From assembly GCA_029268515.1 (NCBI GenBank), contig JAQWNP010000010.1, positions 218,330 to 282,329 on the forward strand: 64,000 nt of DNA, given 5' to 3'. Both the position numbers and the translations under genes were made by a program. Positions 1-51,378 of the stretch are shown here, piece after piece. Origin of the DNA: Phycisphaerales bacterium (GTDB taxonomy: Bacteria > Planctomycetota > Phycisphaerae > Phycisphaerales > SM1A02). Position 1 is the first letter of the stretch. Every line of letters starts with the position of its first letter. Under the pieces are notes generated by a model. It made no database searches, was not told the origin of the DNA, and saw nothing but the letters and a program-made list of their open reading frames with translations.

Positions 1-2847
1 GATGGTGGGCTGCGAGGCGAGATCAATAACCAAATTGCTGCTGGCAACGTTGATGGCTCGAATTTTGCGTTTCCAGGCTATCTGGATTGGCTAGACACCA
101 TTGGCTTTGACGGTGAAGGCGTCATTATGGCCAATGTTGATAGTGGTGTGGATCAGAATCATCCAGACCTTGCCGGACGTTTCTTGTCATGTGTCGGTGA
201 TACTTGCGGCGGAAGTGCCTGTGGTGATCATGGCACACATACCGCTGGAGCGATGGGTGGTACTGGTGCCTCTGGAACCAATGCTGGTGGTTTCTTGCGA
301 TCCTTAGGTATGGCTCCTGGCGCAGACATGATCGAGCAGGTCTATAGCCCAACCTTCACGCAAACTGGTGGCATGTTCAAGCTGATCAAAGAATCAAATG
401 ACAATGATGCAGTTCTTTCGAGTAACAGCTGGGGACCTTCGGGCTCTCCACAGGGTTACGACAGTGACACGATGCAGGTGGACCAAGGCGCCTTGGATGC
501 CGATCCGAATGCGTCAGGCAATCAGGCTTTTCTCTATGTGCTTGCATTTATGAACGGTAATGGAGGAACCAGCTCACAAGGTTCACCCGACGAAGCAAAG
601 AATATCTTCACGATCGGTTCAACAAAGGTATTGCAAGGCGGATCACAAACGCCAAACATCAACGACCTTTCTAGTAACACAGCTCACGGACCAGCACTCG
701 ATGGCCGCCAGCTTCCACACATGGTCACTGGTGGTTGTTCAACAGATGGCCCAACATGTAGTGGTGGTTACTCCAACGGTTATTGTGGAACAAGCATGGC
801 GTGCCCCAACGCTGCAGGTGCCTGTGCACTCTTCTTTCAGTATTACCGAAGTCTAGGGCTTGATAATGCCGTGCCATCACCAGCAATGGTGAAAGCCGCG
901 ATTTGCGCTGTCGCACATGACCTTGACGGGAATGATGATGCTGATGGTAATACGCTAGATCACCGACCAGACAATAAGCAAGGTTATGGCCGGCTTAATG
1001 TGCCAGCGGCACTTCTTCAGCCCGCTGATTCTGTTCGCTACTACGATGAGCCCGTGGTCTTTGATAACTCAGGTGAGTCCTGGGAAGTCACTGTGACACC
1101 GCTGGATCCAAACCAGCCGATGCGCATTATGCTTGCCTGGTCTGACGCGGTTGGGCACGGTTTAGGTGGTTCAACGCCAGCCTGGAACAATGATCTGGAC
1201 CTCGTTGTTGTTGCTGGTTCTTCAACTTACCGCGGCAACCAGATTGGCGGTAGCGGTTGGTCCACACCAAGTAGTTCAAGTGACAGTATCAATAATATGG
1301 AAGGTGTTTACTTAGGACCAAATGCACCTGCGTCAGCGACGATCCGCGTCGATGCAACAAATATCAACTCCGATGCAATCCTCAATTCAGGTGATACAAC
1401 CGATCAGAGCTTTGCATTGGCATGTTACAACTGTGCTGCTGAACCCGGCTTCTCCATTGCAGTCGCACCAAGCTCATCAAGTATCTGTGGTGCGGACACG
1501 AGCGAAGTTGTCTTGAGTGTTGAGGTTGGTTCAGTGCTTGGGTTCTCTGATCCCGTGGCACTGGCAGTAACCGGTGTTCCATCTGGCGCATCTGCCTCGT
1601 TCTCAGACAACCCAGCAACGCCTGGATCAACTTTGAGTCTTACGATTTCTGGACTCAATAGCGTTGCCTCAGGTAGCTACAGCCTCAGCGTCGATGGTGT
1701 GAGTAATGCCATCGTGAAATCGGCAAGTGCTTCATTACAAGTGGAAGCCAGTATACCTAGCGCCGTTGCCTTGCTCTCGCCTTCTGATGGGGAGAGTAGC
1801 GTGTCTGTGGCTCCAAGTTTGACGTGGAGTGCAGAGGCGAGCGCATCCAACTATGACGTGCAGGTATCAGGAAACAGTAGCTTCTCTACACTCCTATTCT
1901 CAGCGACTGTGGAGGAGACTGAGGCCACTGTATTGCCAGCGTTAGAATCGAGTACACGTTATTTCTGGCGCGTCCGCGGTTCCAATGCATGTGGTACGGG
2001 CAGCTGGTCTACAGTCAATGATTTCCACACAGCAGAATTACCTGCAGTCCTCGTCGTCGATGATGATGACAACGACCCAGATGTTCAGAGCTATTACACC
2101 AATGCCCTTGATGCAATGGGAGCAAGCTATGACAAGTGGGATACCGGAAACACAGACAATGAACCCTCTGCATCAGAGTTAGCAGGGTACGACCTAGTCA
2201 TCTGGTTTACGGGTGCTGAGTTCGGTGGCTTTGCCGGACCTGACGCTGCGTCAGAGTCTGAGTTGATGTCCTATCTTGATTCAGGCGGCTGTTTGTTCAT
2301 TAGTTCTCAGGACTACATGTGGGATCGTGGTGGTGATACATCGAATCCTTCTCCAACCACGCTCATGTCTGATTACTTAGGCGTTTCTACTGCAACCAAT
2401 GATGTCAGCCAAAGCAGCGTGACCGGAGCAAACCTGTTCGATGACGCCGGCACGATGACACTGGATTTCCCCTTCAGCAATTGGAGTGATGTGGTAGATC
2501 CAAGCGGTTCTGCAGCACTCGGTTTTTCGGGTAGTGCAGGCAATGCAGCAACGTATATATCCAATGAGACGTTCACTGGTGCATATCTCGGATTCCCATT
2601 AGAAGCACTCGATGATGTTCAAGATCGCATCAATGTCTTACAGGTCATGTTTGACCTCTGTGAGAATGGCGCTGAGCCTTGCCCTGCAGACTTTGATTTA
2701 GATGGTCAGGTCAACATTGGCGATTTCTCACTGTTCCTTGTTGCCTTTGGCGGCAGCGATCCAATGTTCGATCTGGATGGTGATGGTCAGGTGGGCCTTG
2801 GCGATTTCTCTGAGTTCCTCGTGAGTTTTGGAATAGCCTGCCCTTAG
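1..2847 (+). CDS. Secreted subtilisin-like (S8) serine protease, 5'-truncated by the window edge. The C-terminus carries an unknown ~270-aa module plus a dockerin/EF-hand-like double repeat.
   Basis: Frame 1 is open from nt 1; the listed ORF begins at internal Met 127. Catalytic motifs occur in order: VIMANVDSGVD (Asp), HGTHTAG (His), GTSMACP (Ser). C-terminal sequence is CPADFDLDGQVNIGDFSLFLVAFGGSDPMFDLDGDGQVGLGDFSEFLVSFGIACP. Confidence 0.9.
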   Translation, partial: DGGLRGEINNQIAAGNVDGSNFAFPGYLDWLDTIGFDGEGVIMANVDSGVDQNHPDLAGRFLSCVGDTCGGSACGDHGTHTAGAMGGTGASGTNAGGFLRSLGMAPGADMIEQVYSPTFTQTGGMFKLIKESNDNDAVLSSNSWGPSGSPQGYDSDTMQVDQGALDADPNASGNQAFLYVLAFMNGNGGTSSQGSPDEAKNIFTIGSTKVLQGGSQTPNINDLSSNTAHGPALDGRQLPHMVTGGCSTDGPTCSGGYSNGYCGTSMACPNAAGACALFFQYYRSLGLDNAVPSPAMVKAAICAVAHDLDGNDDADGNTLDHRPDNKQGYGRLNVPAALLQPADSVRYYDEPVVFDNSGESWEVTVTPLDPNQPMRIMLAWSDAVGHGLGGSTPAWNNDLDLVVVAGSSTYRGNQIGGSGWSTPSSSSDSINNMEGVYLGPNAPASATIRVDATNINSDAILNSGDTTDQSFALACYNCAAEPGFSIAVAPSSSSICGADTSEVVLSVEVGSVLGFSDPVALAVTGVPSGASASFSDNPATPGSTLSLTISGLNSVASGSYSLSVDGVSNAIVKSASASLQVEASIPSAVALLSPSDGESSVSVAPSLTWSAEASASNYDVQVSGNSSFSTLLFSATVEETEATVLPALESSTRYFWRVRGSNACGTGSWSTVNDFHTAELPAVLVVDDDDNDPDVQSYYTNALDAMGASYDKWDTGNTDNEPSASELAGYDLVIWFTGAEFGGFAGPDAASESELMSYLDSGGCLFISSQDYMWDRGGDTSNPSPTTLMSDYLGVSTATNDVSQSSVTGANLFDDAGTMTLDFPFSNWSDVVDPSGSAALGFSGSAGNAATYISNETFTGAYLGFPLEALDDVQDRINVLQVMFDLCENGAEPCPADFDLDGQVNIGDFSLFLVAFGGSDPMFDLDGDGQVGLGDFSEFLVSFGIACP

Positions 2848-2896
2848 TCGTTGCTGCGACAGTTCGGTACTGGTTGATCTCATTCTTTGATGAAAT

Positions 2897-2930
2897 AGCA
2901 CGGTGGCATAAGCCGCCGTGCTTTATTTTT
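2897..2930 (+). terminator. Rho-independent terminator after the protease gene
   Basis: Hairpin AGCACGGTGGC-ATAA-GCCGCCGTGCT followed by TTTATTTTT, about 50 nt after the stop codon. Coordinates are approximate. Confidence 0.6.
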
Positions 2931-2948
2931 GGAGCGTTGATGCTGTTT

Positions 2949-2986
2949 CAAAAAATAAGGAAGGCCCGCATGAATACGAGCCTTCC
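2949..2986 (-). terminator. Rho-independent terminator for the minus-strand gene 3033..3755
   Basis: On the minus strand, GGAAGGC-(14 nt)-GCCTTCC is followed by TTATTTTTTG, about 45 nt after the stop codon. Confidence 0.55.
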
Positions 2987-3032
2987 CCCACCAACAAATG
3001 CTGTGGTTACAGTGCTTAGGTAATCTTTCTTA

Positions 3033-3755
3033 CTAAGCTGCGGCTGACTGATTGCAGTTCTTACCAACCGTACGTTGATCTGTCGTGGCTCGTCGTTCCG
3101 GCTCTGCAGCGAGGCGAACGAGAAGACTGACAGGATCCTTTGCCCAAAGGTCGGCGCCAATTTCTGCAGCCAGACCTTCAGCACGGTTGAAGACGCCACC
3201 ACCGACCACGATCTGCAAGTTTGGACAGGTTGCAATCTCGCGTACCGTATCGATGACCTCGCGAATGCCTGGAGCATCCTGCGCGGAAGAGCCAAACATC
3301 ATCAGAATGTCTGGGCGATGTGATCCAACTTCAGCAATGATCTCGTCACGAGCGATTCCACCACCGCCGTAATAGACCTCGTAGCCATCTGCTTCTGCTA
3401 AATCTGCCATCATCTGTCCAGCCAATTCTTCAGCCTCACTTGGGCCAGAGAACATGAGCATTTTGCGGCCGCGTCTCTCTTTGATTTCATAACTTAGTTG
3501 TGCTCGGTCAACTAAGCCACGCATGAGACGTGTTGAGTAGTGATATGCCAGTTTGGTGAGTTGATCTGCTCTGTACATTGTCTGGATCATCTCAAGCAGT
3601 GGCCAGTAGGTCTCTTTTGTGAGATCTTCGGCTACATACGACTCGCATTGCTCCTCTTCAAAGAGACTTCTCACGCCACCTCGATCACCTGCGATCAGCA
3701 AAGGAAAGAGTCTTTCTATCATCATTTCATGATTCACTTTGATGCTCCTCATCAT
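3033..3755 (-). CDS. Cobalamin (B12)-binding-domain-like protein lacking the canonical His ligand motif
   Basis: The C-terminal half follows the B12-binding Rossmann pattern (KMLMFSG...RPDILMMFGSS...NLQIVVGGGVF...AAEIGADLWAKDP) after a helical cap. GPSEAEELAG sits where DxHxxG is expected. Confidence 0.55.
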   Translation of the reverse strand: MMRSIKVNHEMMIERLFPLLIAGDRGGVRSLFEEEQCESYVAEDLTKETYWPLLEMIQTMYRADQLTKLAYHYSTRLMRGLVDRAQLSYEIKERRGRKMLMFSGPSEAEELAGQMMADLAEADGYEVYYGGGGIARDEIIAEVGSHRPDILMMFGSSAQDAPGIREVIDTVREIATCPNLQIVVGGGVFNRAEGLAAEIGADLWAKDPVSLLVRLAAEPERRATTDQRTVGKNCNQSAAA

Positions 3756-3900
3756 CTTGCCTTCAGTTCCGACCGAAGGTTACACCTGGTCTTGAGACCC
3801 GCTTCATCGAGCAAGGCTGGGGTGATGCTGAAGAAACAGCGAAGGCCATAAAAAACATGGCTATCGGACCTTAATGAGGTCCTGAATGGAGATGAATGAG

Positions 3901-3938
3901 CAAAAAGTGCGCGAGGCTGCTCAAAGAACAGCCTCGCG
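3901..3938 (-). terminator. Rho-independent terminator for the cupredoxin gene
   Basis: On the minus strand, stem CGCGAGGCTG / CAGCCTCGCG with a 9-nt loop is followed by ACTTTTTG, about 35 nt after the stop at 3974. Confidence 0.55.
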
Positions 3939-3973
3939 GGAAAGCACTTTCGGAATATCGGTCCTGCTCGGTC

Positions 3974-4978
3974 TTACCGATCTGTTGAGCTCAGGGAGCT
4001 TTTTTTGCTGGGCTGCTTACCAGTTGGCTTGATTTCAATGATCTGACTTCGTCTGGAGCAGTCATTTCCATAGTTGATCAGAAACAGACTGAAATCTCCC
4101 AGATCGACCAAGCCACTACCATCCATATCGATGCTTTCATTGGCTGTGCCGAAGGCGACAAGGAAAAGCGAGAAGTCACTGAGGCCGACGATGAGGTCTT
4201 CATCAAAGTCACCTGGACACGCTGTTGGGCAGCTTGTTGTCCCGTCATTGACTTCACCCGTACTTGGATCGATCGTCCACCAAATATTGCCGAGGCCCTG
4301 GCCAGCAGCAGTTGCTGCTGAGTTATCGTTGCGGAATTGATAGATGGGGCGCGGTCCAATGCATGTTTCCACGATGACGTGGCCACTGGCATTGACATAG
4401 TGGGTGACTTCTACGCCTGCGCCAATATTGCCTAGCTCATCAGCAGTCACGAGCGGCCAAGCAGTGCCGTTGTAGCCAGGGTTTTCGTCATTGTCATTGC
4501 CCCACACATAAACAGTGCGTTGGTCGCTGGTGGCATCACCACCTTGCACGGCACCGGAGGTCGCACCAGCGATTTGAAGAACATCCGAGCCGTTGATAGT
4601 CGCCAGATGACTGGTTGCGATATCAGGTGTCTGAATCAAAATTAAGCCTTCCATACCAAAGCCACAATGTGGTTCGCAGAAGTAAGGAATATCGCTGGCC
4701 GCATCATTTGGAACAAGCCATGTGAATTCAGAATTGGAAGCGGAAATTACTTCGTCAAAATAAAGGCCATCAGAGATGCAGTTCGTTCCAGAGGTAATGA
4801 TGTGATTGCCACTGACGTGGTTCCATATGATCGAATCACCTGGAGCCACGACAATGGTGCTCGGTGAAAATGAAAGTTGATTGACATCAACGTGATGGGT
4901 GGTCTGGGCGTTCGCGTTCACAGAAAGTGAAAGAACACTGCAGCTGGCGATTGTTCTTAGTGCTGTAGAAAGACGCAT
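3974..4978 (-). CDS. Secreted type-1 copper (cupredoxin/plastocyanin-like) protein with a dockerin-like C-terminal module and a basic tail
   Basis: Signal peptide MRLSTALRTIASCSVLSLSVNANA. Cu-ligand pattern: WNHVSGNH upstream, then CEPHCGFGM (Cys-x2-His-x4-Met). C-terminal module CPGDFDEDLIVGLSDFSLFLVAFGTANESIDMDGSGLVDLGDFSLFLINYGNDC. Confidence 0.8.
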   Translation of the reverse strand: MRLSTALRTIASCSVLSLSVNANAQTTHHVDVNQLSFSPSTIVVAPGDSIIWNHVSGNHIITSGTNCISDGLYFDEVISASNSEFTWLVPNDAASDIPYFCEPHCGFGMEGLILIQTPDIATSHLATINGSDVLQIAGATSGAVQGGDATSDQRTVYVWGNDNDENPGYNGTAWPLVTADELGNIGAGVEVTHYVNASGHVIVETCIGPRPIYQFRNDNSAATAAGQGLGNIWWTIDPSTGEVNDGTTSCPTACPGDFDEDLIVGLSDFSLFLVAFGTANESIDMDGSGLVDLGDFSLFLINYGNDCSRRSQIIEIKPTGKQPSKKSSLSSTDR

Positions 4979-5208
4979 TTATATTTATTCCTTTTTCCTG
5001 CCCTCTATTTGTGGCAGACTTCAATGGCCTGCTTCTCTTACAAATGTCTTGTTTAGGCCCTTTTCTTGCGGGTATCCAGAGAAATAGTGGGAGATTTAAA
5101 AGTGCGATTCTTTGTTTCGGTTCGGTGTAGGGGTGACAAAGTCCAATCTGGATGCCAGAATGGCCGAGCTCAAATTTCAGTTGACTCACTAAAACACAAG
5201 GAATTGAT

Positions 5209-5922
5209 ATGAAAAAGCAGACTTTGATCTGTTCAGCAATGGGTATTGGGTTGTTGTTTATGTTGGCGTTTGCAGCAAATCAAGACGCGGATACGGCGGC
5301 TGATACGTTGCCTGAGAATGAACAGACTTGGACCGGTGATTCTTGGCCACTCAAAACATGTCCAGTTTCTAAACGAGAAATTGTGAATCCAAAGACCGGC
5401 ACTTATGACGGCCGTGAAGTGCGGTTTTGTTGTGGTGGTTGCAAGAGCAAATTTGAAAAAGACCCGGCGACCTATCTGGGCCCAGCTGACGAAGAGATCA
5501 TGGAGATCTATCGTCCTTCTTATCCAATGAAGACATGTATTGTCATGCATGAGGAGCCGCTGCCAACTGATGCGGAAGAGTTTACTGATGTTGTATACCG
5601 CAATCGGCTTGTGCGTTTATGTTGTGCAAGATGTGAAAAGAAATTCAACAAAGAACCCCTAAAGTACGTGATGGCTCTAAATCAGAAGATCATTGAGCAA
5701 CAAGGTCCTGACTACCCCCTAACGACTTGTGTGATATCAAACAAGAAGCTTGATTCAATGGGGCCAATGGTTGACTATGTCTGGGAGAATCAACTTGTTC
5801 GCTTCTGCTGCGCACCCTGCATTGAGCGTTTTAATGAGGATCCTCAGAAGTACATGAAAAAGATCATGTCAGCTTATGAAGCGAAAGAAAAGACTGGCGA
5901 TGAGACCGCTTCAGGCAACTGA
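5209..5922 (+). CDS. Secreted protein with three tandem YHS/TRASH-like Cys-rich metal-binding repeats
   Basis: Signal peptide, then three repeats of C-x22-27-CC-x2-C-x3-F-x3-P-x2-Y: ...FCCGGCKSKFEKDPATY, ...LCCARCEKKFNKEPLKY, ...FCCAPCIERFNEDPQKY. AGGA lies upstream of the ATG. Confidence 0.65.
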   Translation: MKKQTLICSAMGIGLLFMLAFAANQDADTAADTLPENEQTWTGDSWPLKTCPVSKREIVNPKTGTYDGREVRFCCGGCKSKFEKDPATYLGPADEEIMEIYRPSYPMKTCIVMHEEPLPTDAEEFTDVVYRNRLVRLCCARCEKKFNKEPLKYVMALNQKIIEQQGPDYPLTTCVISNKKLDSMGPMVDYVWENQLVRFCCAPCIERFNEDPQKYMKKIMSAYEAKEKTGDETASGN

Positions 5923-5944
5923 ATCGAAGAGAAGTGCCAAGAAA

Positions 5945-5987
5945 TAAAAACCGCGGCGTCGCCATGAGGCGAGCCGCGGTTTTTTTA
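5945..5987. terminator. Bidirectional hairpin terminator between convergent genes
   Basis: AAAAA-CCGCGGCGTCGCC-ATGA-GGCGAGCCGCGG-TTTTTTT. An A-run and a T-run flank a long GC-rich stem. Confidence 0.7.
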
Positions 5988-6004
5988 TCAGAGATATTGG
6001 CTGC

Positions 6005-9000
6005 TTATGGGCTGCAGGTTATTCCAAATTGGACTAAGAAGACTGAGAAGTCACCGAGACCAACGCTTCCGTCATCGTCCAAGTCGAAAGTTGGATCGGA
6101 GCCTCCGAAAGCAACGAGGAACAAAGAGAAGTCGGATATACCAACCGTCAGATCTCCATCAAAGTCGCCAACACAATCATTGGGTTGTGTTGTTCCACAT
6201 TGATCAATGACGACTTGAAGAATATCAATTCGATCTTGTAGCTCAGAGACTGCTTCAAGAGGAAATCCCATATACACAGCAGTAAAATTACTACCAGTTT
6301 GATTGGTTGCCACATTGGAGCCATTGCTTACAAAGGAAGCCTCTCCATTGGCACTAGGCTCAAGTGTGTCGACATAGTTGCTAAAAGGTACATCGAGCGA
6401 ATAGTCACTCGTTCCCAGAACCTCATAGAGTGAGCCATTGGGCGTCACTGAAGTTTGACCCGTATCGTTACTGCCAGCGGACACGCCGAGGTAGTTTTGC
6501 ATCAAACTTGTGGGGGTTGGACTAGAACTTGAACCACCACGATCCCAAAGATAATCCTGACTTGAGATCAATAAGCAGTTACCCGCGTCCAGGAATGCTC
6601 CTAAAGCAGCTTCACCATCAGGTCCAGGCCCCGCGAAACCACCGAACTCTGCGCCTGTAAACCAAATGACAGTTTTGTAGCCAAGCAATTCAGAACTGGT
6701 TGGCTCATCATCTGAATTGTTTGTATTCCAGATGTCATATGAGACACCCATCGCATCCAGCGCATTGGTGTAGTAACTCTGGACATCTGGATTATTGTCA
6801 TCATCATCCACTAATAAGACGCCAGCTGATCCAACTGTGATAGATATTTCTGCATCACCAGAGTTCGTGGCTCCTTCTCTTACGCTGAAGGTGAACGTAT
6901 CGGTGCCTGAATATTGTGGGTTTGGTGGTTGGTATGTCACCGCATTTGAAACAAGTTCATATGGGACGGTGTTAATCGAGGTGCCTTTGCTCGACAGGCT
7001 GCCATCGATAGGCAGTGTTGTAATGATGTAGTCTAAGTTGCCGCCAGAACCAGTAGCGCCAGTCAGTGCGATCTGTAGTGCAGTTCCTTGCTCAGTGGAG
7101 AGGGTTTGGTCGAATGCAGAGGGTGGACAATTCGTACCAGACGCCGCCACCTTAAGTGTCCAGCTATTGAGTGTTCCTTGATCTGCAGACGCCGAATCGC
7201 TGATTCGCAATATCCAGTTGCCAGCAGATGATTCGCCATTGAAGTCAGCCAGCGTGCCGGGTCCTTGAGGCGGATTCGAATCGTCATCGTATGTGGTTTG
7301 AATATTGTCAGCATCACCACCAGCCCCATCGTGAAGCGTCACCAGCGTTCCTTCAGGACTTTCAAGTTGTACGGTGAGATCACCTATCCATGAGTGGTTG
7401 ATATCAACTTCCAAGTCTACGTCACCGATACAGTAAGCATCTGCAACAACCAGCACGCTCTCAAACGTCTGATTGTCTTCAATCGGGAGCGGTGTGTCAC
7501 TTGAGGCATAACTGAATCGTCCAACATCAAGTTTCACAGTACGTGTCGCCAGCGTTACGCCAGCCGTCGTGTCGGCGAAGGAGACACTCGACTCGGCCAG
7601 ACCGTTTGGTAAGCCATTGGCGTCTGCCCCAATACCAATAGTGACGGTTTGGGTATCACCGATGCCAGAAAGTGTAAAAGTGGTGGGGGAAGAGGAACCG
7701 TTCATGGTGACCCATGAATCGTCGGCCTGAACGCTTACGTTGACTGGTGTGGGCCGTGTGCTCGTAAGCACGTAGTCCAGCGTGGTTGTAAACGGTCCGC
7801 CTATTGGGCCGCCGACGACAAGATCTGTTCCTGGTGCTGTATCAAAGCCAGTTGTTCCAATTTCGAGAACATGCTGACGTGTTTGAATGAGATTTGAGGT
7901 GATATCTTCAAACACGACGGTCGCGGTGTGTGTCCCATTGCCGAGCGAGGCAGCACTGCGTGATAGCGCCGCTTGCAGGTCGAGAGAACCACCAGCACTC
8001 AGCGTCCCAGACAATGGCCTTGTCGAACCATTAATGGTCATCATGTTGTTGGTTTGGTCGAGTCGTACTTCGTAAGCCAACGCGTCACTTGTGGCATTAG
8101 ATAGCGTGTAGGTCGTTGGATCATTTGTAAAGACGGTGTCACCGGACTGGCCGAGATGAAGCACATTTGTGTTTGGTGTCACACTGATACCCAGCTCAGG
8201 TTTTAGTATGAATAGCCCTCGTTCAATATCACTGCAAATGACATTGCCGCTGGGAAGGAACGGGTGGTTGCTCCACATGCCGTTGAAATTAGCACTGTCG
8301 TCATCTGGATACGTATCGAAGTATGCCACCTCGGTTGGATTCAGAGGGTCAGATGCATCGAAGATGCGAAGGCCACTGCGATAATTGGCTTGATAGATAA
8401 AGGTGTCATCGCAGTAGAGATTGTGATCAATAGCACTGTTCGTTGATTGAATCGAGCCCACCTCAGAGAGATTGGTCAAATCACTCATGTCAACGATTCT
8501 AGTCTTCGTTGCATGGTTATTGTTTTGTTCGTCTAACTCATCACCGTGGTAATAGTACTGCTTGTCTGGTGAGCACCATCCTTGATGGGAGTAACCCGGA
8601 GAACTGTATTCATAGTGGGTCAGTACGACGATGTTGCTCTTGTCGGTAACATCAACCATCGAAATACCGGTTGAAGAAAAACCACCATTGAAACCTGCAG
8701 AGCAAACGGCAATCTCTCGGCCTGCATAAGGACCAGATTCCATCACAAAAATCTGAGCATCATGAACGTATTTGTCATTCCACTCGGCAACAAAGACTGG
8801 CGAAGATGGGTCTGCAAGACTATAGATTCGCAGGCCATTGCTGGAGCCGCCGCAGCGATAAAGAAAACCCGTTTCGACACAAAGTGCCACGTTATGAGTC
8901 GCTTCAGTGCCGCCTTCGAGCACGGTATCGACGAGCGTAACATTACCGTTGCCAATGTCTGAGAGGTCCGCGATTTGAATGCCATTGCCGCACTCACTAA

Positions 9001-9424
9001 CCATATAGGCATGGTCTTGATACGTCTTGATGTCGCGCCAGCTGCTGGAACAACTAGAAATCATCTCAATCATGACTGGGTTGTTCGGATCAGTGACTTC
9101 AGCGAAGAGTGTGCCGTTTTGTAAGCCAATAATCGCGTACTCTCTGCCTTCGCCATCCACGTAACCCCAGCAATCATTTGCGGCACCGTGGGTTCCAAAG
9201 CCAGCATTTTGAATATCTGTCAGTGAGATCCAACTCTGGAGTGTTACTTTTTCAGAGTCAAACTGACCTAACCGAGCAATATCATCACCTTGGACATAGC
9301 CAGGGCCTTCGTATCTCAGCTGTTTGTCTTTTGCCTTTGGATCATCTGGATGGCCAATAACGAATGCCGAGATGACACAAACCGTGCTGAGGGTGAGCGC
9401 CAAAGTGAGTGGACGTAAACGCAT
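6005..9424 (-). CDS. Large secreted multidomain protein: LVIVD-repeat/choice-of-anchor-B-like beta-propeller (tentative), Ig-like region, proprotein-convertase P-domain, the unknown ~270-aa module and a dockerin-like tail
   Basis: N-terminal signal peptide. P-domain signature DLEVDINHSWIGDLTVQLESPEGTLVTLHD...GNWILRISDSASADQGTLNSWTLKV. Propeller-like motif HNLYCDDTFIYQANYRSGLRIFDASDPLNP. C-terminus CVGDFDGDLTVGISDFSLFLVAFGGSDPTFDLDDDGSVGLGDFSVFLVQFGITCSP. Confidence 0.8.
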   Translation of the reverse strand: MRLRPLTLALTLSTVCVISAFVIGHPDDPKAKDKQLRYEGPGYVQGDDIARLGQFDSEKVTLQSWISLTDIQNAGFGTHGAANDCWGYVDGEGREYAIIGLQNGTLFAEVTDPNNPVMIEMISSCSSSWRDIKTYQDHAYMVSECGNGIQIADLSDIGNGNVTLVDTVLEGGTEATHNVALCVETGFLYRCGGSSNGLRIYSLADPSSPVFVAEWNDKYVHDAQIFVMESGPYAGREIAVCSAGFNGGFSSTGISMVDVTDKSNIVVLTHYEYSSPGYSHQGWCSPDKQYYYHGDELDEQNNNHATKTRIVDMSDLTNLSEVGSIQSTNSAIDHNLYCDDTFIYQANYRSGLRIFDASDPLNPTEVAYFDTYPDDDSANFNGMWSNHPFLPSGNVICSDIERGLFILKPELGISVTPNTNVLHLGQSGDTVFTNDPTTYTLSNATSDALAYEVRLDQTNNMMTINGSTRPLSGTLSAGGSLDLQAALSRSAASLGNGTHTATVVFEDITSNLIQTRQHVLEIGTTGFDTAPGTDLVVGGPIGGPFTTTLDYVLTSTRPTPVNVSVQADDSWVTMNGSSSPTTFTLSGIGDTQTVTIGIGADANGLPNGLAESSVSFADTTAGVTLATRTVKLDVGRFSYASSDTPLPIEDNQTFESVLVVADAYCIGDVDLEVDINHSWIGDLTVQLESPEGTLVTLHDGAGGDADNIQTTYDDDSNPPQGPGTLADFNGESSAGNWILRISDSASADQGTLNSWTLKVAASGTNCPPSAFDQTLSTEQGTALQIALTGATGSGGNLDYIITTLPIDGSLSSKGTSINTVPYELVSNAVTYQPPNPQYSGTDTFTFSVREGATNSGDAEISITVGSAGVLLVDDDDNNPDVQSYYTNALDAMGVSYDIWNTNNSDDEPTSSELLGYKTVIWFTGAEFGGFAGPGPDGEAALGAFLDAGNCLLISSQDYLWDRGGSSSSPTPTSLMQNYLGVSAGSNDTGQTSVTPNGSLYEVLGTSDYSLDVPFSNYVDTLEPSANGEASFVSNGSNVATNQTGSNFTAVYMGFPLEAVSELQDRIDILQVVIDQCGTTQPNDCVGDFDGDLTVGISDFSLFLVAFGGSDPTFDLDDDGSVGLGDFSVFLVQFGITCSP

Positions 9425-9571
9425 GTTTGCTCTTTCTCTAAATTTGAGGATGGCCTGTGAGCAGTCATATGTCCGCCCAGCAGCCCCCCCCAGGGTTTCT
9501 CTTTCTCTGATAAATGACAGTTTAGAGCATCCAAGGGGTAATTTGGAGTAATAAATCGGCCCAGATTGAGA

Positions 9572-10129
9572 TTAGCCCAATCTGCATCTCCTACGCCTCG
9601 GAAGCCAAATGAGCAAGACGATGGGGAGCCCCATAGGGGCTGGAATGGCCTGTGGAGGTGTTGCTCCATCAGGGTGAAAGGTCCATGCATCCCAGGATCC
9701 ATCTGAGACCATCCATGAATCAGCGCCGACCGGGGCAAAGTCCCAGTTTGGGCTCGTGCCTGGCATAGCAACCCAATAAGCCCAGTAGTCATCAAAGTCA
9801 GGAAAGCCGGCACCCGTACCGAAGGCATAGTCATTCTCAATGCCCAGACCTTGAAGCCAGTGGCCCCAGGAATAGGTCTCATACTCCATCGTGAGAACGT
9901 TGGGAAGATCGCTTGTCATGATCTGGAGAAGATCCCAGCCACTGACGTCACCATCATCTTCGTAGGCCACATCAAAAAGGTAGGTGTTGTCATTGTCGAA
10001 TTCAATCTGGACATAAGACACGGAGTCACCACTACCAACGGAGTAGGTATTCACAAGATCAGCTTGTGACATAGATATAAAAATAAAGGGCAGTACGACA
10101 GCGCACATATGACTCAGACGCAAAAACAT
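9572..10129 (-). CDS. Secreted protein with a degenerate PEP-CTERM-like C-terminal sorting signal
   Basis: I moved the start to the ATG at 10129, which has AGGAG 6 nt upstream and opens a signal peptide MFLRLSHMCAVVLPFIFISMSQA. C-terminus IPAPMGLPIVLLIWLPRRRRCRLG (motif, TM helix, Arg cluster). Confidence 0.6.
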   Translation of the reverse strand: MFLRLSHMCAVVLPFIFISMSQADLVNTYSVGSGDSVSYVQIEFDNDNTYLFDVAYEDDGDVSGWDLLQIMTSDLPNVLTMEYETYSWGHWLQGLGIENDYAFGTGAGFPDFDDYWAYWVAMPGTSPNWDFAPVGADSWMVSDGSWDAWTFHPDGATPPQAIPAPMGLPIVLLIWLPRRRRCRLG

Positions 10130-10453: not shown

Positions 10454-11653
10454 ATGAAAAAATTACGGCCCCTCCAGATGACTTTAATGTTGCTTAGCCT
10501 CTTTTTGAGTGTCTTTTTTATAGAACCATGTCACGGTCAAGTGCCGCCACGGGGTATTCTTGGTCGTCCATCACCACCTCTCAATGTCGATTCTTGGGTC
10601 ATGCTCCCTCCCGGGCACACCGTTCCAGAACTCAAAGAAATGAGAGGTAAGGTTGTTTACCTCTACTGTTTTCAATCGTGGTGCCCAGGCTGTCATTCTC
10701 AGGGCTTCCCAACACTTCAGAATCTTATAGAGCAGTTCAACGGCATTGATGACGTTGTGTTCTTGGCGGTGCAAACAGCCTTTGAAGGCCACGGTACAAA
10801 CACGCCAGCGGCAGCGATCTCGACAGCAAAGCGATATTCCTTGGACATTCCAATTGGTCATGATGGTTCAGTAGGCAAACGCAGTAGTGTGATGCAGACA
10901 TATCGCACCGGTGGCACGCCATGGACAATTATCATTGGTAAAGATGGTGTTGTGCGCTACAACGATTTTCATGTCACACCAAAGCGGGGCGCTGAGATTA
11001 TTAAACAACTTCAATCTCAACCTATACCAGAACAAGTGTCAGTCAAAGTGCTTGAGCCCGTTCAGACATTGCCTTTAAGTAGGGGCGGGCAAGATGTGAT
11101 TGGAAAACCGATGATTCCACTTGCATTCGATGGGATTATTGAAACAACGACAGCTCCGAAACGGATACCAGATAAAACAAAGACGCAACCGATTACGGTC
11201 TATCGGTGGTGGACAAATACCTGTCCTCATTGTGAAGCCTCGCTACCGGCATTTGAACAGCTTCGACAAAAGTATGAATCCAAGGGTGTTCGATTTGTGG
11301 CGGTCTATCATCCCAAGCCTCCAAGAGAGATCACAGTGACAGAGGCCGCTACGATGGCCCGAGAAATGGGATTTGAGGGTCCAGTTGCACTGGATCAAGA
11401 CTGGTCATTGTTGCGGCAGGCGTACTTAGATCGTGGCAACCGAGTTGCTACCAGTGTCACGTTTGTGGTCGACGGGCAGGGGCGCATTCGATTCTTGCAC
11501 CCCGGACCAGTCTTTTTTGCTTCTGATGAGCCTCAGCATATCCGTGAGAATGACGACTATCAGCGTCTCGATCAGTCAATAAAGACACTGCTGAGCGAGC
11601 GACCGGATGGCCATTCTCAGCCCCAGCCGGGATCGAATCAGCCAGATTCCTAA
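10454..11653 (+). CDS. Secreted tandem thioredoxin-fold (TlpA/redoxin-like) thiol-disulfide oxidoreductase
   Basis: Signal peptide. Two thioredoxin-like halves, each with a CxxC motif: FQSWCPGCH and WWTNTCPHCE. Confidence 0.75.
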   Translation: MKKLRPLQMTLMLLSLFLSVFFIEPCHGQVPPRGILGRPSPPLNVDSWVMLPPGHTVPELKEMRGKVVYLYCFQSWCPGCHSQGFPTLQNLIEQFNGIDDVVFLAVQTAFEGHGTNTPAAAISTAKRYSLDIPIGHDGSVGKRSSVMQTYRTGGTPWTIIIGKDGVVRYNDFHVTPKRGAEIIKQLQSQPIPEQVSVKVLEPVQTLPLSRGGQDVIGKPMIPLAFDGIIETTTAPKRIPDKTKTQPITVYRWWTNTCPHCEASLPAFEQLRQKYESKGVRFVAVYHPKPPREITVTEAATMAREMGFEGPVALDQDWSLLRQAYLDRGNRVATSVTFVVDGQGRIRFLHPGPVFFASDEPQHIRENDDYQRLDQSIKTLLSERPDGHSQPQPGSNQPDS

Positions 11654-11771: not shown

Positions 11772-12161
11772 ATGTCTGATACCTCGCCACCACCTGATGC
11801 TTCAACCCGGCAGCTGGCTCGCCAGACCGCTGATTTGCTCGTCCTCTGCGTGCTCTCCGATGGCCCGCAATACGGATACAGCATCATGAAACTCGTAGGT
11901 GCTCGTAGTGATGGTGCGGTGAGATTGACACCAGGCACGCTCTATCCACTGCTACATGAACTGGAGCGGGGCAAGCTTGTGCTAGCCAGCTGGGAGACGG
12001 TTCGCGCCGATGCAGATCGGGTTGGGCGAAAGCGCAAGTGGTATCGACTTTCGGCCAAAGGGCGACGTAAGCTGGAACAGCGTGCTGCGGCTCATCGTGC
12101 GTTTCTGCGCATGTTGGATGCATTTCTGCCATCGAGTGGTGGCCAGAAGGAGACAGCATAA
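11772..12161 (+). CDS. PadR-family transcriptional regulator
   Basis: Winged-helix PadR signature: PQYGYSIMKLV...GTLYPLLHELERGKLV...KRKWYRLSAKGRRKL. Confidence 0.85.
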   Translation: MSDTSPPPDASTRQLARQTADLLVLCVLSDGPQYGYSIMKLVGARSDGAVRLTPGTLYPLLHELERGKLVLASWETVRADADRVGRKRKWYRLSAKGRRKLEQRAAAHRAFLRMLDAFLPSSGGQKETA

Positions 12162-13948
12162 TGCGTCCAGTTCGACAGTTCGTTGATCGTCTTTCCACGA
12201 TGTTGCGGTTACCTGCAAGGCGCCGTCAAGCGATAGCAGATGAGTTAACCTCGCATTTGGAAGATCGTGTGAGAGATCTAGAACTTGAGGGATATTCACA
12301 ATCAGAAGCGCTGAAGTTCGCTATTAGTGAGCTCGGCGAAATGAAAGAATTGGCGCACTGCTTACAACAGGCAAATCGTATGCCGTACAGGAGGATTGCT
12401 ATGAATACACTGATCATCACTGGAACGGTGGGGGCGCTAACCGCTGCGGGTCTTTTTGTTGTTGATGAACCAATGGGTCCGTCGGACGGCATGTCAGGCG
12501 CCGTGGCGCCGGGTTTGAGCGAAAAAATAGAGGAGGATCTGGCTCGCAAGGAGATCGAGTTACCAGTAGATGGAACGGATTTGTTCAACATTGCCGAGTC
12601 ACTAGCCAGATCAGAAGACCTGACACTTTTTATTCACCCCGACATTGGCGAAGACCGGCTCTATCAGCCTATTTTAGCGCTTCGTGAAGGCTCCGTCTCA
12701 GTGCAAGAGGTTGTTGATCGTGCAAGTCTTGACTTATATGGGTCTAGCGAGGTGATCATCTTGGTTGAAAATGAAGGTCGTCTTGAGTTGGGTACCCAAG
12801 AGGGGGTTGACCGTCGCTCAACAAGCTTGATTTGTTACTCGATTGACGACACTCTTAGAGGAATGGTTTTAGGTGAGGATGCGACAACGACCGTACATAG
12901 TCCTCAAGAGGCGGCGCAGAGCTTGACCAGACTGATTCAGGATTTGGTTTATCCAGATTTGTGGCACGGCAATGGTGGCCATATGGCTTCGATTCATGTG
13001 GCAAGCGGCGGGCGTATGTTCATTGATGCGCCGCAACGTGTTCATGATCGTCTCGCATGGGTCATTCGCATGCTGCCCTCGATGACACAGGAAGATGTTA
13101 ACTTACGTTTGAAACGGGGTGGTCGTGGTTGGGGACACGGCGCCAACGGTGCTGACGGTGGCTTTGGTGGCCAGGGCGGTACTGGTGGCGTCGGCTTTGG
13201 TGGTCAGGGCGGCGCTGGCGGTGGCTTTGGTGGCGAGGGCGGCGCTGACGGTGGCTTTGGTGGCGAAGGCGGCGCTGGCGGTGGCTTTGGTGGCGAGGAC
13301 GGCGCTGACGGTGGCTTTGGTGGCGAAGGCGGCGCTGGCGGTGGCTTTGGTGGGGGTGCCGGCGGAACGCTAAGGCCAGATGATCCGGATCAAGGTGACT
13401 GGCAGCGCCACGCAGGCTTGCTCGCCGGGGCTCTGGGTACCATTGAGCCCGAGGGAACCCATGAGGATTATGTGACGGACGAGGACCCGCATGCTCATCA
13501 CGATGCGATGATTGATTCGCGCAACGCGGCGATAGATGCGAGGCAACGTGAGCTGGAAGAGCAGCTGCGCATGAAGATGGAGCAATTCGAACGTGAGGCT
13601 CGTGAGTATGAGAAACAACTTGAGCAGCGGAAGCAAGCGATTGAGAAATACGCGCAGAAGCAAAATGAGGCGATTGAGTTACGCAAAATGGAAGTAGAGC
13701 AAGCAATCGATCAACGACGCGGAGAAATAGAACGTTATATCGAAGGAAAGAAACAGCAAGTCGAAGAAATCATGTCTCAACATGAGCAAGCATTTAGAGC
13801 TACCGAACAAAAACTAAACGAACGTAGGCAAGAGTTAGAGCAATGGGCCGAGAGGCTTCGTTTACAGGAAGAGAACTTTAAAGAGCAGCGCGAGCCTACG
13901 TATGAAGAGCAACACAACTTCGAGAAAGAAGCACGGGGTGCTGAATAG
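12161..13948 (+). CDS. PadR-associated membrane protein with a cytoplasmic helical N-domain, one TM helix, a Gly-rich repeat and a long charged coiled coil
   Basis: Its ATG overlaps the PadR TAA (TAATG). N-terminus ...RRRQAIADELTSHLEDRVRDLELEGYSQSEALKFAISELGE is typical of PadR partner proteins. TM helix MNTLIITGTVGALTAAGLFVV. GGFGG(E/Q)GGA(G/D) occurs about 7 times, followed by an E/Q/K/R-rich C-terminus. Confidence 0.7.
   Translation: MRPVRQFVDRLSTMLRLPARRRQAIADELTSHLEDRVRDLELEGYSQSEALKFAISELGEMKELAHCLQQANRMPYRRIAMNTLIITGTVGALTAAGLFVVDEPMGPSDGMSGAVAPGLSEKIEEDLARKEIELPVDGTDLFNIAESLARSEDLTLFIHPDIGEDRLYQPILALREGSVSVQEVVDRASLDLYGSSEVIILVENEGRLELGTQEGVDRRSTSLICYSIDDTLRGMVLGEDATTTVHSPQEAAQSLTRLIQDLVYPDLWHGNGGHMASIHVASGGRMFIDAPQRVHDRLAWVIRMLPSMTQEDVNLRLKRGGRGWGHGANGADGGFGGQGGTGGVGFGGQGGAGGGFGGEGGADGGFGGEGGAGGGFGGEDGADGGFGGEGGAGGGFGGGAGGTLRPDDPDQGDWQRHAGLLAGALGTIEPEGTHEDYVTDEDPHAHHDAMIDSRNAAIDARQRELEEQLRMKMEQFEREAREYEKQLEQRKQAIEKYAQKQNEAIELRKMEVEQAIDQRRGEIERYIEGKKQQVEEIMSQHEQAFRATEQKLNERRQELEQWAERLRLQEENFKEQREPTYEEQHNFEKEARGAE
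13157..13360 (+). repeat. In-frame tandem repeat: 30-nt unit in about 7 copies, with a near-perfect 60-nt super-unit in 2 copies
   Basis: The unit ggtggctttggtggcga(g/a)ggcggcgct(g/a)(g/a)c repeats head to tail. It encodes GGFGGEGGAD/GGFGGEGGAG inside CDS 12161..13948. Confidence 0.9.
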
Positions 13949-16432: not shown

Positions 16433-17116
16433 ATGAAACGCTCAAACCGATTGATTGCTTTAGCTACGCTTTTCCTTTGTTCTGCCCCTGCTCTTTCTCA
16501 AACTCAAACCTATTTGGCACACAGTAACTACGACCAAGATCTCGATGGATGGAGAGTGAAGGATACGATCAACAATGTATCCAGCTACTACGCACCAACC
16601 TGGTTACCAAATGGTGGTGCACCAGACGGGCACATGGAGTTCCATGATGTGACACCTGGTGGCTATATATTTGAAGCGCCAGACAAATTCCACGGCGACT
16701 TTTCAGCAGCCGTAGGTAATGGAGGTGTGTTTTATGATTGGGGTGCAGATTGGATCATGGATGATCGGAGATCTTCAGTGACATTCTGGAGTGGCGACGT
16801 CCGTCTGTGGGCGAGTAGCAATCAGGGACTTGCCACGAATGTATGGCACCATTTTGATTATGCATTTGATATGGGTGTGGGCTGGAAAGTCGATTATGGC
16901 TTAGGTGCTCAGACAGCAACCATGGCTGATCTCTATACAGTCCTTTCAAATGTGACTGATATGAATATCTCAGGCGAAACGTGGACCGGTATTACTGAAA
17001 CCACTTGGGTCGATAATCCAACAATTTATATGAACGTACCAGCTCCAGGGGCACTTGCTCTGTTCGGCCTTGCAGGGCTCGTAGGTAGACGTCGTCGATC
17101 GAGTCGTCGGGTGTAA
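16433..17116 (+). CDS. PEP-CTERM-anchored secreted protein of unknown function
   Basis: Signal peptide MKRSNRLIALATLFLCSAPALSQ. C-terminus VPAPGALALFGLAGLVGRRRRSSRRV is a classical PEP-CTERM layout. Confidence 0.8.
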   Translation: MKRSNRLIALATLFLCSAPALSQTQTYLAHSNYDQDLDGWRVKDTINNVSSYYAPTWLPNGGAPDGHMEFHDVTPGGYIFEAPDKFHGDFSAAVGNGGVFYDWGADWIMDDRRSSVTFWSGDVRLWASSNQGLATNVWHHFDYAFDMGVGWKVDYGLGAQTATMADLYTVLSNVTDMNISGETWTGITETTWVDNPTIYMNVPAPGALALFGLAGLVGRRRRSSRRV

Positions 17117-21097: not shown

Positions 21098-21110
21098 AGG
21101 GCTCGCTCCG

Positions 21111-22013
21111 TCAGTTGACTGGGCTTTCAGTTTCTTGCGAATTGGGCTTATTGTGTTTTGGTAGGACCACACGTTGATTGCGAATATTAATTCCCCACCC
21201 TTCGGCAAGGATATGTAGCTTGACCCCAGCAAAAGAGATGGGGTCGGATTCTCGGATTTCTGGGATGTTAGAGTGTATAAGATCTGAAGCATCGACTACG
21301 GTCAGTGTGCCTTTTCCGACAATATTGACATTGCCTTTTGGATCCACAATGAACGCGGTATTTTCATCAATACCGAATCCCAGCATGTAGGGATTTCTCA
21401 ACACTGCCGCAATAAGGCGATTAAGTCGATGTCGCTCTTGGAAGTGCTGATCCACGATGACACGATGAAGTATTCCCAAACCAGGGGACAGGCGAACTGA
21501 AGAGAGTCGAGGGGTGCGGCTTGAAGTACCGCGAGCAATCATGACCGTGCTCATCGCTGAGGCGCCGGCGCTGGTTCCACCGATATGCGTGCCTAAGCGA
21601 TGTTGCTCATGAAGAACACGCGTCCAAGCAGTACCACCTAATAGTGTGACAAGCTTGAGTTGATCGCCACCTGTGAAGTAGACGCCGGTTGCATTCTTTA
21701 GGATTTCCAGGCCCTTGGGATTTTCGGCATCCACGCGATGTTCGTGATAGACGAGTTCAAGGTCCTTGACACCAAGGGCTGTGAACGCGGAGCTGTACTC
21801 TTCAAGCAGCTCTTCAGGAACGGTAGATGCAGTTGCAACGACAGCAATACGTGCGTTGTCCCCACCCGAAGTCTGGACAAACCGATGCAGAATTCGTCGG
21901 CTATTTTCCCGATCTTCGGCGCCGCCGACGACAAACAAGGATCCATTACATGATTCACTCAAAGTGATAAGCCCGGCCTTCTTCCTACCAATAGAGCCGC
22001 ATGTTGAATCCAC
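21111..22013 (-). CDS. cphB: Cyanophycinase (S51 peptidase)
   Basis: Motifs VVGGAEDRE, IAVVATAS, GVYFTGGDQLKL and GGTSAGASAMS (nucleophile Ser context). The gene lies 13 nt upstream of cphA. Confidence 0.85.
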   Translation of the reverse strand: MDSTCGSIGRKKAGLITLSESCNGSLFVVGGAEDRENSRRILHRFVQTSGGDNARIAVVATASTVPEELLEEYSSAFTALGVKDLELVYHEHRVDAENPKGLEILKNATGVYFTGGDQLKLVTLLGGTAWTRVLHEQHRLGTHIGGTSAGASAMSTVMIARGTSSRTPRLSSVRLSPGLGILHRVIVDQHFQERHRLNRLIAAVLRNPYMLGFGIDENTAFIVDPKGNVNIVGKGTLTVVDASDLIHSNIPEIRESDPISFAGVKLHILAEGWGINIRNQRVVLPKHNKPNSQETESPVN

Positions 22014-25499: not shown

Positions 25500-25648
25500 A
25501 TCCAGATTTGATCGGTGAGGCATCTGGCTCATCGGCTCTCTCAAAAGAGGCCCTGACAACGTATTTTAGAGCCCGCCAGTGACACAAATGGGTGAAACTA
25601 GAAGTTTCTGGCCATCGTTGGGGGGCCCCCGCGCGATATGATCGACAT

Positions 25649-28600: not shown

Positions 28601-29233
28601 AGGCAGAGGTTATCTGCCGAGCAGATCAGAGATCAGGCACTTTATATTTCTGGGTTGCTGGTTGAGGAATTTGGTGGCCCGAGTGTAAAGCCATATCAAC
28701 CCACGGGATTGTGGCAAGAAGTTGCCATGCCGCAATCCAATACCCGCACATTTGTACAAGACACTGGTGATGCACTATGGCGGCGATCTTTGTACACCTA
28801 CTGGAAAAGAGCCTCGCCGCCTCCAACGATGCTCACTTTAGATGCCCCGACACGTGAATATTGTGTCACCCGGCGACTGACAACCAACACGCCTCTGCAG
28901 GCCTTAGTTCTTTGGAACGATATTCAATTCGTGGAAGCAGCGCGTGGTCTTGCAGCACGTGTCATAAGCGAGCAAGACCATGACGAGCAAAGACTAGGGT
29001 TGCTCTATCGTTGGATCACATCAGGTCAGCTCAGTCCAGAGCTTCAAGAGGTGCTTCAGTCAGCTTTGGATGAGTACCGTGATCGGTTTGCAAGGGCACC
29101 GGAAGACGCTGAATTATTGGTTTCAACTGGAGAATCTCCAGTTCCTGATAGCATTTCGCCTGTGGATCTTGCATCATGGACACTCATTGCTAATGCAATC
29201 ATGTCGAGTGATGCTGCAATTGTTAAGGACTAA
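25649..29233 (+). CDS. PSCyt1/DUF1549/DUF1553 (planctomycete cytochrome-c-domain, PSD1) protein
   Basis: I placed the start at ATG 25649, which opens a signal-like [28 protein letters not shown]. It carries a heme motif [23 protein letters not shown]1549-like [28 protein letters not shown] and a DUF1553-like C-terminal region. Confidence 0.85.
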
Positions 29234-29243
29234 CAACTAGATC

Positions 29244-35658: not shown

Positions 35659-35853
35659 TTTAATGCACCCCTCCGAGCATTTTGGTGTGTTGAAAGAAAA
35701 CACAAATTGATGAAGTCTGTTGTTACCAAGTTCATCACCTATTCAGTATAAAACAATTATTACACCAGCACTAATGCTTTAGTAATGGGCCTATTCACTT
35801 AGTAGGTACATTGAAGTAGCGATTTGATGCGAGCGTAATCTCAATTGATGCGA

Positions 35854-51370: not shown

Positions 51371-51378
51371 AATTGCGA

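Follow-up and report, generated by a model that had tools for sequence, protein, structure and literature searches.

The 64 kb stretch of DNA analysed here (the window; contig JAQWNP010000010.1 of a Phycisphaerales bacterium) carries near its start three genes, for an S8 subtilase, a plastocyanin-like cupredoxin and a choice-of-anchor-B propeller/P-domain protein of 1139 amino acids (aa), each of which encodes towards its C-terminus the same short module of 54-56 aa, bracketed by two cysteines and built of two putative calcium loops (Table 1). A reading made earlier from the letters of the sequence (the sequence-only reading) had described this two-loop tail on three secreted proteins; both the translations of the open reading frames (ORFs) and a hidden Markov model (HMM) search agree with it, and its three module positions proved exact on translation. 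All three carriers look exported. The cupredoxin and the propeller protein have N-termini that read like signal peptides, and the S8 protease is 1186 aa long with an N-terminal signal peptide in a near-identical strain (locus L082). That strain is represented by a 61 kb contig reached through a cupredoxin variant (P0003), the exact match to the cupredoxin being found only on a 1 kb contig.

Table 1. Features of the window and, in the last row, of the closest relative; positions are those of the window unless a locus is named. NF041540 scores are given for the isolated tail and then for the whole protein.
Feature	Position	Strand	Evidence and remarks
S8 subtilase gene	1..2847	+	Pfam Peptidase_S8 E 3e-26; frame open from base 1, 5' end cut by the window edge
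~215 aa unannotated pre-tail domain, S8 protease	2032..2679	+	VLVVDDDDN...; common to the propeller protein
GC-type dockerin module, S8 protease	2680..2844	+	55 aa, Cys1...Cys54; NF041540 35.5 bits, E 1e-8, profile 1-67/67; whole protein 29.1 bits
Secreted cupredoxin (plastocyanin-like) gene	3974..4978	-	Pfam Copper-bind E 1.5e-6; TIGR02656 plastocyanin E 1.2e-6
K/S/R-rich extension after the cupredoxin module	3977..4057	-	27 aa, from sequence
GC-type dockerin module, cupredoxin	4058..4219	-	54 aa; NF041540 26.5 bits, E 6.5e-6, full profile; whole protein 21.4 bits
Choice-of-anchor-B propeller / P-domain / Big_9 gene	6005..9424	-	TIGR04312 choice_anch_B E 6e-97; P_proprotein E 2e-19; Big_9
GC-type dockerin module, choice-of-anchor-B protein	6008..6175	-	56 aa; NF041540 25.0 bits, E 1.8e-5, full profile; whole protein 16.8 bits
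Second copy of the ~215 aa pre-tail domain, choice-of-anchor-B protein	6176..6835	-	Similarity to the S8 protease copy
Secreted protein with repeated YHS/TRASH-type Cys metal-binding motifs	5209-5922	+	Pfam YHS E 1e-12; divergent from the cupredoxin
Small exported protein, PEP-CTERM-like tail IPAPMGLPIVLLIWLPRRRR	9572-10129	-	No PEP-CTERM match
Exported protein, two TlpA/ResA-like thioredoxin-fold domains (thiol:disulfide oxidoreductase)	10454-11653	+	1 kb from the carriers
Small exported protein, PEP-CTERM-like tail VPAPGALALFGLAGLVGRRRR	16433-17116	+	Pfam PEP-CTERM 19.6 bits, cut-off 20.7
Cyanophycin synthetase (Cyanophycin_syn + Mur ligase) adjoining Peptidase_S51 (cyanophycinase-like)	18392-22013	-	ORFs overlap by ~180 nt as listed
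PSCyt1/PSCyt2/PSD1 (DUF1549/DUF1553) gene, then DUF1501 gene	25592-30758	+	Typical planctomycete signature proteins, in support of the assignment to this phylum
N-terminal-module GH9 glycoside hydrolases, closest relative	L001 562-3402 and 3852-6623		Module directly after the signal peptide

The tail of the S8 protease reads CPADFDLDGQVNIGDFSLFLVAFGGSDPMFDLDGDGQVGLGDFSEFLVSFGIACP and that of the choice-of-anchor-B protein CVGDFDGDLTVGISDFSLFLVAFGGSDPTFDLDDDGSVGLGDFSVFLVQFGITCSP; the stop codon comes next in both, with 0-2 aa between it and the final Cys. The tail of the cupredoxin, CPGDFDEDLIVGLSDFSLFLVAFGTANESIDMDGSGLVDLGDFSLFLINYGNDC, is followed by the K/S/R-rich extension that the sequence-only reading had also picked out, which puts 27 aa between the final Cys and the stop. 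This is atypical of the family (114 of 120 related modules, taken from 80 fetched loci, are C-terminal, ending at most 5 residues from the stop codon); the extension is identical in the near-identical strain (P0003), a comparison that is uninformative at such closeness. The S8 tail is 57% identical to that of the cupredoxin and 76% identical to that of the choice-of-anchor-B protein, and in the alignment of the three, 29 columns are invariant, both Cys included. Each tail is itself an internal duplication, its halves sharing 11-15 of 21 residues by eye, and in the S8 tail the half-repeats form a 50 nt direct repeat (2701-2750 and 2782-2831, 76% identity). The helices of the window copies are rich in Phe (DFSxFLVxFG), a sub-type to which 15 modules from the top 150 matches belong. 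Run against a six-frame translation of the whole window, an HMM of the three copies recovered these three (E 2e-32 to 5e-31) and no fourth copy, the next match having an E-value of 0.77. Because both this HMM and an independent curated profile, NF041540, match all three tails, their resemblance is, at the level of sequence, far beyond chance.

That profile (NCBIfam NF041540, "dockerin_GC," GC-type dockerin domain-anchored protein) aligns over its full length of 67 positions to each tail, and it matches all 58 of the related modules that were aligned with the window copies (best E 1.1e-18). Its curated cut-off is 29 bits, and the S8 copy lies above this both as an isolated tail and within the whole protein. 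On these matches, the module belongs to the catalogued GC-type dockerin family and is not new, and the window tails are divergent, low-scoring members of it that make up a Phe-rich sub-type. They resemble the family in the leading C-P-x-D-F-D-G-D-G, in the two Asp loops, in the terminal G-x(0-2)-C, in their C-terminal position and in their Planctomycetota/Phycisphaerae host; they differ from it in being shorter than the 67-position profile and rich in Phe, in that two of them carry Leu for Gly at position 6 of the first loop, and in the extension that follows one of them. A literature search for "GC-type dockerin" found no publication on the family, which probably tethers enzymes to the cell surface.

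To model the fold we used AlphaFold2 (AF2) with an alignment of 45 sequences, made up of the window copies and of modules cut from the best matches of a library-wide HMM search. The model is confident (predicted local distance difference test, pLDDT, 96; predicted template-modelling score, pTM, 0.78); residues 13-22 and 40-49 form its helices, and residues 1-12 are non-helical. In a Foldseek search of the PDB, its first 16 matches are all dockerins, the best being 2Y3N_B (TM-score 0.87, root-mean-square deviation 1.1 Å, 52 columns, probability 1.00), whereas calmodulin-type EF-hand structures reach TM-scores of only 0.25-0.27. A model from the three window copies alone (pLDDT 72, non-significant fold matches) was dropped for the one built from 45 sequences, and a sequence search of the PDB with the module profile, which gave EF-hand loop matches together with weak dockerin matches, was unable to separate the two folds.

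The loops themselves are strongly constrained. Asp is invariant at positions 1 and 12 of both loops in all 123 modules, positions 3 and 5 hold D or N, and the Gly at position 6 is kept in 119 of 123 first loops and 121 of 123 second loops; the positions of the calcium ligands (D1, D/N3, D/N/S5, D12) are filled in all three window tails. Other Phe-rich modules show variants (D-L, D-W or D-H) similar to the Leu substitution in the window. To have Asp and not Glu at position 12 of the loop, and no entering helix, is typical of dockerins and not of EF-hands. Because the predicted fold matches dockerins, the loops carry Asp12 and there is no entering helix, we assign the module, on the strength of the model, to the dockerin fold. 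The sequence-only reading had proposed a dockerin-like double calcium-loop module, which the curated family and the predicted fold both uphold; its two 12-residue loops, each followed by an F-rich helix, are likewise present, but they are of the dockerin type and not the canonical EF-hand loops they had been likened to. We also considered a canonical, calmodulin-like pair of EF-hands and ruled it out on the sub-threshold match to Pfam EF-hand_1 (E 2e-4; 21.1 bits, cut-off 25.4), the Asp12 of all 123 modules, the non-helical residues 1-12 and the low TM-scores.

With the cellulosomal dockerins of types I and II (2Y3N_B, 2VN5/2VN6, 2OZN_B; PF00404) the module shares the duplicated 12-residue calcium loop plus helix, the antiparallel two-helix fold, the internal near-symmetry and the C-terminal placement on secreted enzymes. 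It differs from them in that its host is a Gram-negative-type planctomycete, its carriers are not cellulases, a Cys-Cys bracket stands where they have a non-covalent clasp, and no cohesin partner was seen in the window ORFs scanned or among the neighbour families listed for carriers.

The bracket is a conserved property of the family, as had been suggested: both Cys are present in 114 of the 120 related modules, the first of them three residues before the first loop Asp and the second as the last structured residue. They also occur together, since among 237 near-complete modules from the top 150 matches 110 have both, 78 have neither, 16 have the N-terminal one only and 33 the C-terminal one only (odds ratio 16, Fisher p 2e-20, uncorrected for phylogeny). 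According to Slutzki et al. (2013; PMC3821032), every intact dockerin structure has the stretch immediately ahead of loop 1 in contact with the C-terminus, an "intramolecular clasp" that stabilises the calcium-bound, cohesin-competent fold; the clasps that they describe are of aromatic stacking, electrostatic and hydrophobic types, with disulfides unmentioned. The residues of that clasp (positions -3 to -1 and the C-terminal residue) correspond to the Cys positions of the window module, and from conservation and co-occurrence we infer that the bracket is a covalent version of it, a disulfide, in which respect it would differ from the clasps described in that paper. A gene close to the carriers encodes an exported thioredoxin-fold protein (Table 1) that might be connected with oxidation of the bracket, or its placement may be coincidental. 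Some relatives carry four Cys (P0021, P0025, P0027, P0032 and loci such as L031 and L036), with an extra C-x(1-4)-C in the linker, e.g., ...FGTPCPGCPEDLDGDG...; each half-repeat is then bracketed by Cys, which suggests either two disulfides or a CxxC redox motif.

The carriers had been taken to be unrelated apart from their tails. This holds for the cupredoxin, which shares the tail alone with the other two, but not for the protease and the propeller protein, which have 257 aa in common at 59% identity, that is, the tail together with a domain of ~215 aa that precedes it. This pre-tail domain is highly conserved (LLVDDDDNxPDVRSYYTxALDALG...SSQDY...) and has no sequence match in Pfam, NCBIfam or the PDB. 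What comes after it at the C-terminus varies among its 61 homologues: a GC-type dockerin in 15 (14 by HMM and 1 by eye), a DGFExGD..W tail in about 12, a (Y/F)LPL(V/I)xR tail in about 10, S-layer homology (SLH) domains in 4 and the C-terminal domain (CTD) of the type IX secretion system (T9SS) in 2. We had also entertained the domain as a general companion of the tail and rejected this, since it is absent from the 80 loci of relatives and from the top 150 module matches, the window's own proteins excepted. To judge by its homologues, it behaves like an undescribed "choice-of-anchor" domain.

Because SLH domains, the T9SS CTD or short tails replace the module after the pre-tail domain, and because the third carrier is itself a TIGR04312 choice-of-anchor-B protein, the module is, by domain architecture, in the position that other lineages use for envelope anchoring. 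It is nonetheless unlike the anchors with which it shares this slot, as it has neither the transmembrane helix and basic tail of PEP-CTERM nor the beta-sandwich of the T9SS CTD, and it may sit N-terminally or in tandem. The possibility that the tails simply are PEP-CTERM or T9SS sorting domains was rejected: they contain no hydrophobic span or Arg cluster, the 55 aa model is all-alpha, and no Pfam or NCBIfam model of such a domain matches them. PEP-CTERM tails had been reported elsewhere in the window; one of the two candidates holds up weakly, with a score near the cut-off, while the other has no match (Table 1). Since PEP-CTERM-like tails occur beside the dockerin tails, two kinds of C-terminal tag appear to coexist in this genome.

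The sequence-only reading had considered that the module might be confined to three paralogous contexts, with Cys that are not conserved elsewhere. What we found instead is a very large family. Among 1.84 billion representative proteins, all of them searched with the profile (E<=1e-3), it was recovered in 5,850 protein clusters, mostly from Phycisphaerae/Planctomycetota, and a scan of one genome per species gave at least 128 confirmed loci, overwhelmingly in metagenome-assembled genomes (MAGs) of the same groups, with at least 20 from a single MAG. The best match in the genome scan is 64% identical, and so the window's own genome lies outside the representatives scanned. The 55 aa tail proved too short a query for a word-indexed search for homologues, which gave no match and was replaced by the HMM search and the genome scan. 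The 86 complete carriers from other genomes contain 68 Pfam families, including FG-GAP, M12B reprolysin, S8, glycoside hydrolase family 9 (GH9), C-type lectin, peptidyl-arginine deiminase, endonuclease I and M1, a diversity that bears out the earlier proposal of an interchangeable tag on different secreted proteins; 17 of the 86 match Pfam Dockerin_1 at E<=1e-3. Carriers tend to cluster: the 80 loci contain 120 modules, and as many as 3 of these lie in tandem genes.

Not every copy is a tail. In the closest relative, an uncultured Phycisphaerae MAG with 64% identity, the module is N-terminal in two GH9 proteins encoded side by side, where it comes right after the signal peptide (Table 1); a few other copies are internal, and some proteins have 6-15 copies in tandem. 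Because such N-terminal, internal and tandem copies occur, the module behaves as an autonomous folded domain and not strictly as a C-terminal signal. The proteins with arrays of 6-15 dockerin-like modules (P0001, P0002, P0007) have an architecture far from that of a single C-terminal tag, and one tandem-array protein, of 2148 aa, has a phage-like N-terminal region. The Cys bracket is lacking in P0001, P0002 has an occasional Cys, and P0007 still has Cys flanking several of its modules.

We consider it fairly probable that the module is a docking tag, dependent on calcium and clasped by a disulfide, which attaches secreted proteins of many kinds to one surface receptor that they share and that is specific to the genome. 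Each carrier would be exported by Sec, after which the 55 aa module would fold round two Ca2+ ions held in its two 12-residue loops by D1, D/N3, D/N/S5 and D12, its two loop-helix units lying antiparallel as in a dockerin. Its first and last residues, both Cys, would then form the disulfide that acts as a covalent clasp, and the near-symmetrical helix faces would bind one shared, genome-specific receptor of the cell envelope, either cohesin-like or of another kind. The protease, the copper protein and the propeller/P-domain protein would thereby be held at the surface or joined in one complex. In favour of a genome-specific receptor, modules of one genome are far more alike than modules of different genomes: the identity of the helix regions averages 0.84 within genomes (per-genome means 0.41-0.95) and 0.31 between genomes. 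A single receptor co-evolving with every copy of the module in the cell would lead one to expect this, just as cellulosomal cohesin-dockerin pairs are species-specific. Each genome has its own "dialect" of the module, as at loci L015-L078 (MAG CAYHQQ01) and others, e.g., DFFDYDAFVVAFE, TIFDFLAFQNAFDAG and SDLSLLLAAWG.

Several points weigh against this docking model. The comparison of helix regions within and between genomes is a statistic that is dominated by one MAG and by matches chosen for their likeness to the query. Two of the three window copies, those of the cupredoxin and the choice-of-anchor-B protein, score under the curated cut-off of NF041540, and the scan with Pfam Dockerin_1 and EF-hand models that the sequence-only reading had proposed gave weak matches, all of them below cut-off: for Dockerin_1 (gathering score 22.9 bits), the S8 tail scored 15.8 bits and the other two had no match. 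With so tiny a domain, Foldseek gives weak E-values, none better than 3e-3. The Leu at position 6 of the first loop (4196-4198 in the cupredoxin and 6152-6154 in the choice-of-anchor-B protein, both on the minus strand) departs from the Gly of nearly all relatives, and the first calcium site of these two copies may be weakened, altered or bind calcium poorly. Finally, Cohesin (PF00963) had no match in the 33 window ORFs of at least 150 aa beyond position 9500, in the three carriers or in the small ORFs scanned among them, and no family is enriched in the 115 genes that flank carriers in other genomes (192 Pfam families, none in more than 3 members). Cohesin is also not among the neighbour families listed (the 25 commonest, shared by at least 2 of the 115 carrier neighbours), and several window ORFs, including 12161-13948, 34615-35703, 47807-49849, 49967-51382 and 59528-61405, have no Pfam match at all. 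The sequence-only reading had spoken of an unknown receptor, and with this the searches are consistent.

Among the other explanations of the shared tail, we rate as extremely improbable the one in which the tails are alike only because neighbouring genes recently underwent local duplication or gene conversion, a trivial cause with no common function behind it. The three carriers do lie within 9.5 kb and two of them share a further 215 aa, but no DNA repeat linking the three tails was found, the tails are only 59-66% identical as DNA, 48-68% of their identical residues are encoded by different codons, and the module occurs in thousands of clusters on unrelated carriers. The repeat search and the codon comparison refute recent copying; because a DNA repeat is absent and synonymous sites are largely different, the similarity of the tail proteins is, on this comparison, kept by purifying selection. 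A calcium-binding unit that has no partner is easier to defend, whether as a stabilising or calcium-sensing EF-hand-like domain or as a calcium-mediated binder of envelope or substrate polysaccharide: sequence profiles match EF-hand proteins (E about 1e-10 when summed over several loops, weaker in another search), EF-hand_1 is matched at E 2e-4, and no cohesin was found in the scanned ORFs or the listed neighbour families. We nevertheless hold it to be unlikely, given that only dockerins rank high in the fold search while calmodulin-type structures fall far behind, that position 12 is Asp throughout and not the canonical Glu, that no helix enters loop 1, and that genome-specific conservation of the exposed helices fits a co-evolving protein partner better.

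The position of the module raises another possibility, namely that the tail is a C-terminal sorting signal like PEP-CTERM or the T9SS CTD, read and maybe cleaved by a dedicated export or attachment machinery, with no reversible docking involved. It would explain why 95% of copies are at the extreme C-terminus, why the T9SS CTD, SLH domains or short conserved tails fill the same slot after the ~215 aa domain in other phyla, why the third carrier is a "choice-of-anchor B" protein and why PEP-CTERM-like tails are present in the same window. A signal of this sort is hard to reconcile with the N-terminal modules of the two GH9 proteins of the closest relative, with internal copies and arrays of 6-15, with the lack of a transmembrane segment or basic cluster and with the confident all-alpha dockerin fold, and no conserved machinery gene was found among the neighbours of carriers; we regard it as quite unlikely.

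The docking model has a precedent in the same class of bacteria. For freshwater Phycisphaerae, cohesin and dockerin modules have been reported, together with the proposal that P-domain proteins and M12B/M14 peptidases come together on the outer membrane as a peptide-degrading "planctosome" (Andrei et al., 2019; PMC6461901). S8, M12B and P-domain proteins are among the carriers of the window and of the relatives taken together, and these classes fit the planctosome picture. The two differ in that the planctosome model rests on cohesin modules that were detected, whereas none was found in the window ORFs scanned or among the listed neighbours of carriers, and both models are proposals. It is possible, although we put this forward with considerable doubt, that GC-type dockerins are the enzyme half of a Planctomycetota-wide system of surface display, a real "planctosome," in which the receptor is not a recognisable cohesin, co-evolution has given each genome its own dialect and a terminal disulfide has replaced the non-covalent clasp.

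If this were true, it would amount to an independently elaborated, redox-dependent counterpart of the cohesin-dockerin system in Gram-negative-type bacteria, whose clients would be proteases, copper proteins and adhesins instead of cellulases. Phycisphaerae are abundant degraders of polymers in aquatic environments, and how their exo-enzymes are retained at the surface is the question that the tag addresses. The interest lies in the biology of a very widespread tag, the family itself being already catalogued for annotation. A single 55 aa tag on thousands of secreted proteins is also a practical handle: used as bait, it could lead to the receptor and put the "planctosome" to the test, and the sequence of the tag alone could show which proteins make up the surface proteome. 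A disulfide-clasped dockerin might, moreover, lend itself to designer enzyme scaffolds as a compact and stable building block.

Other genes of the window are given in Table 1 for completeness. The secreted YHS/TRASH-type protein encoded between the cupredoxin and choice-of-anchor-B genes may form with the cupredoxin a small copper-handling pair. Further along, a cyanophycin synthetase gene adjoins one for a cyanophycinase-like peptidase, and a PSCyt1/PSCyt2/PSD1 gene is followed by a DUF1501 gene, both of them encoding signature proteins typical of planctomycetes.

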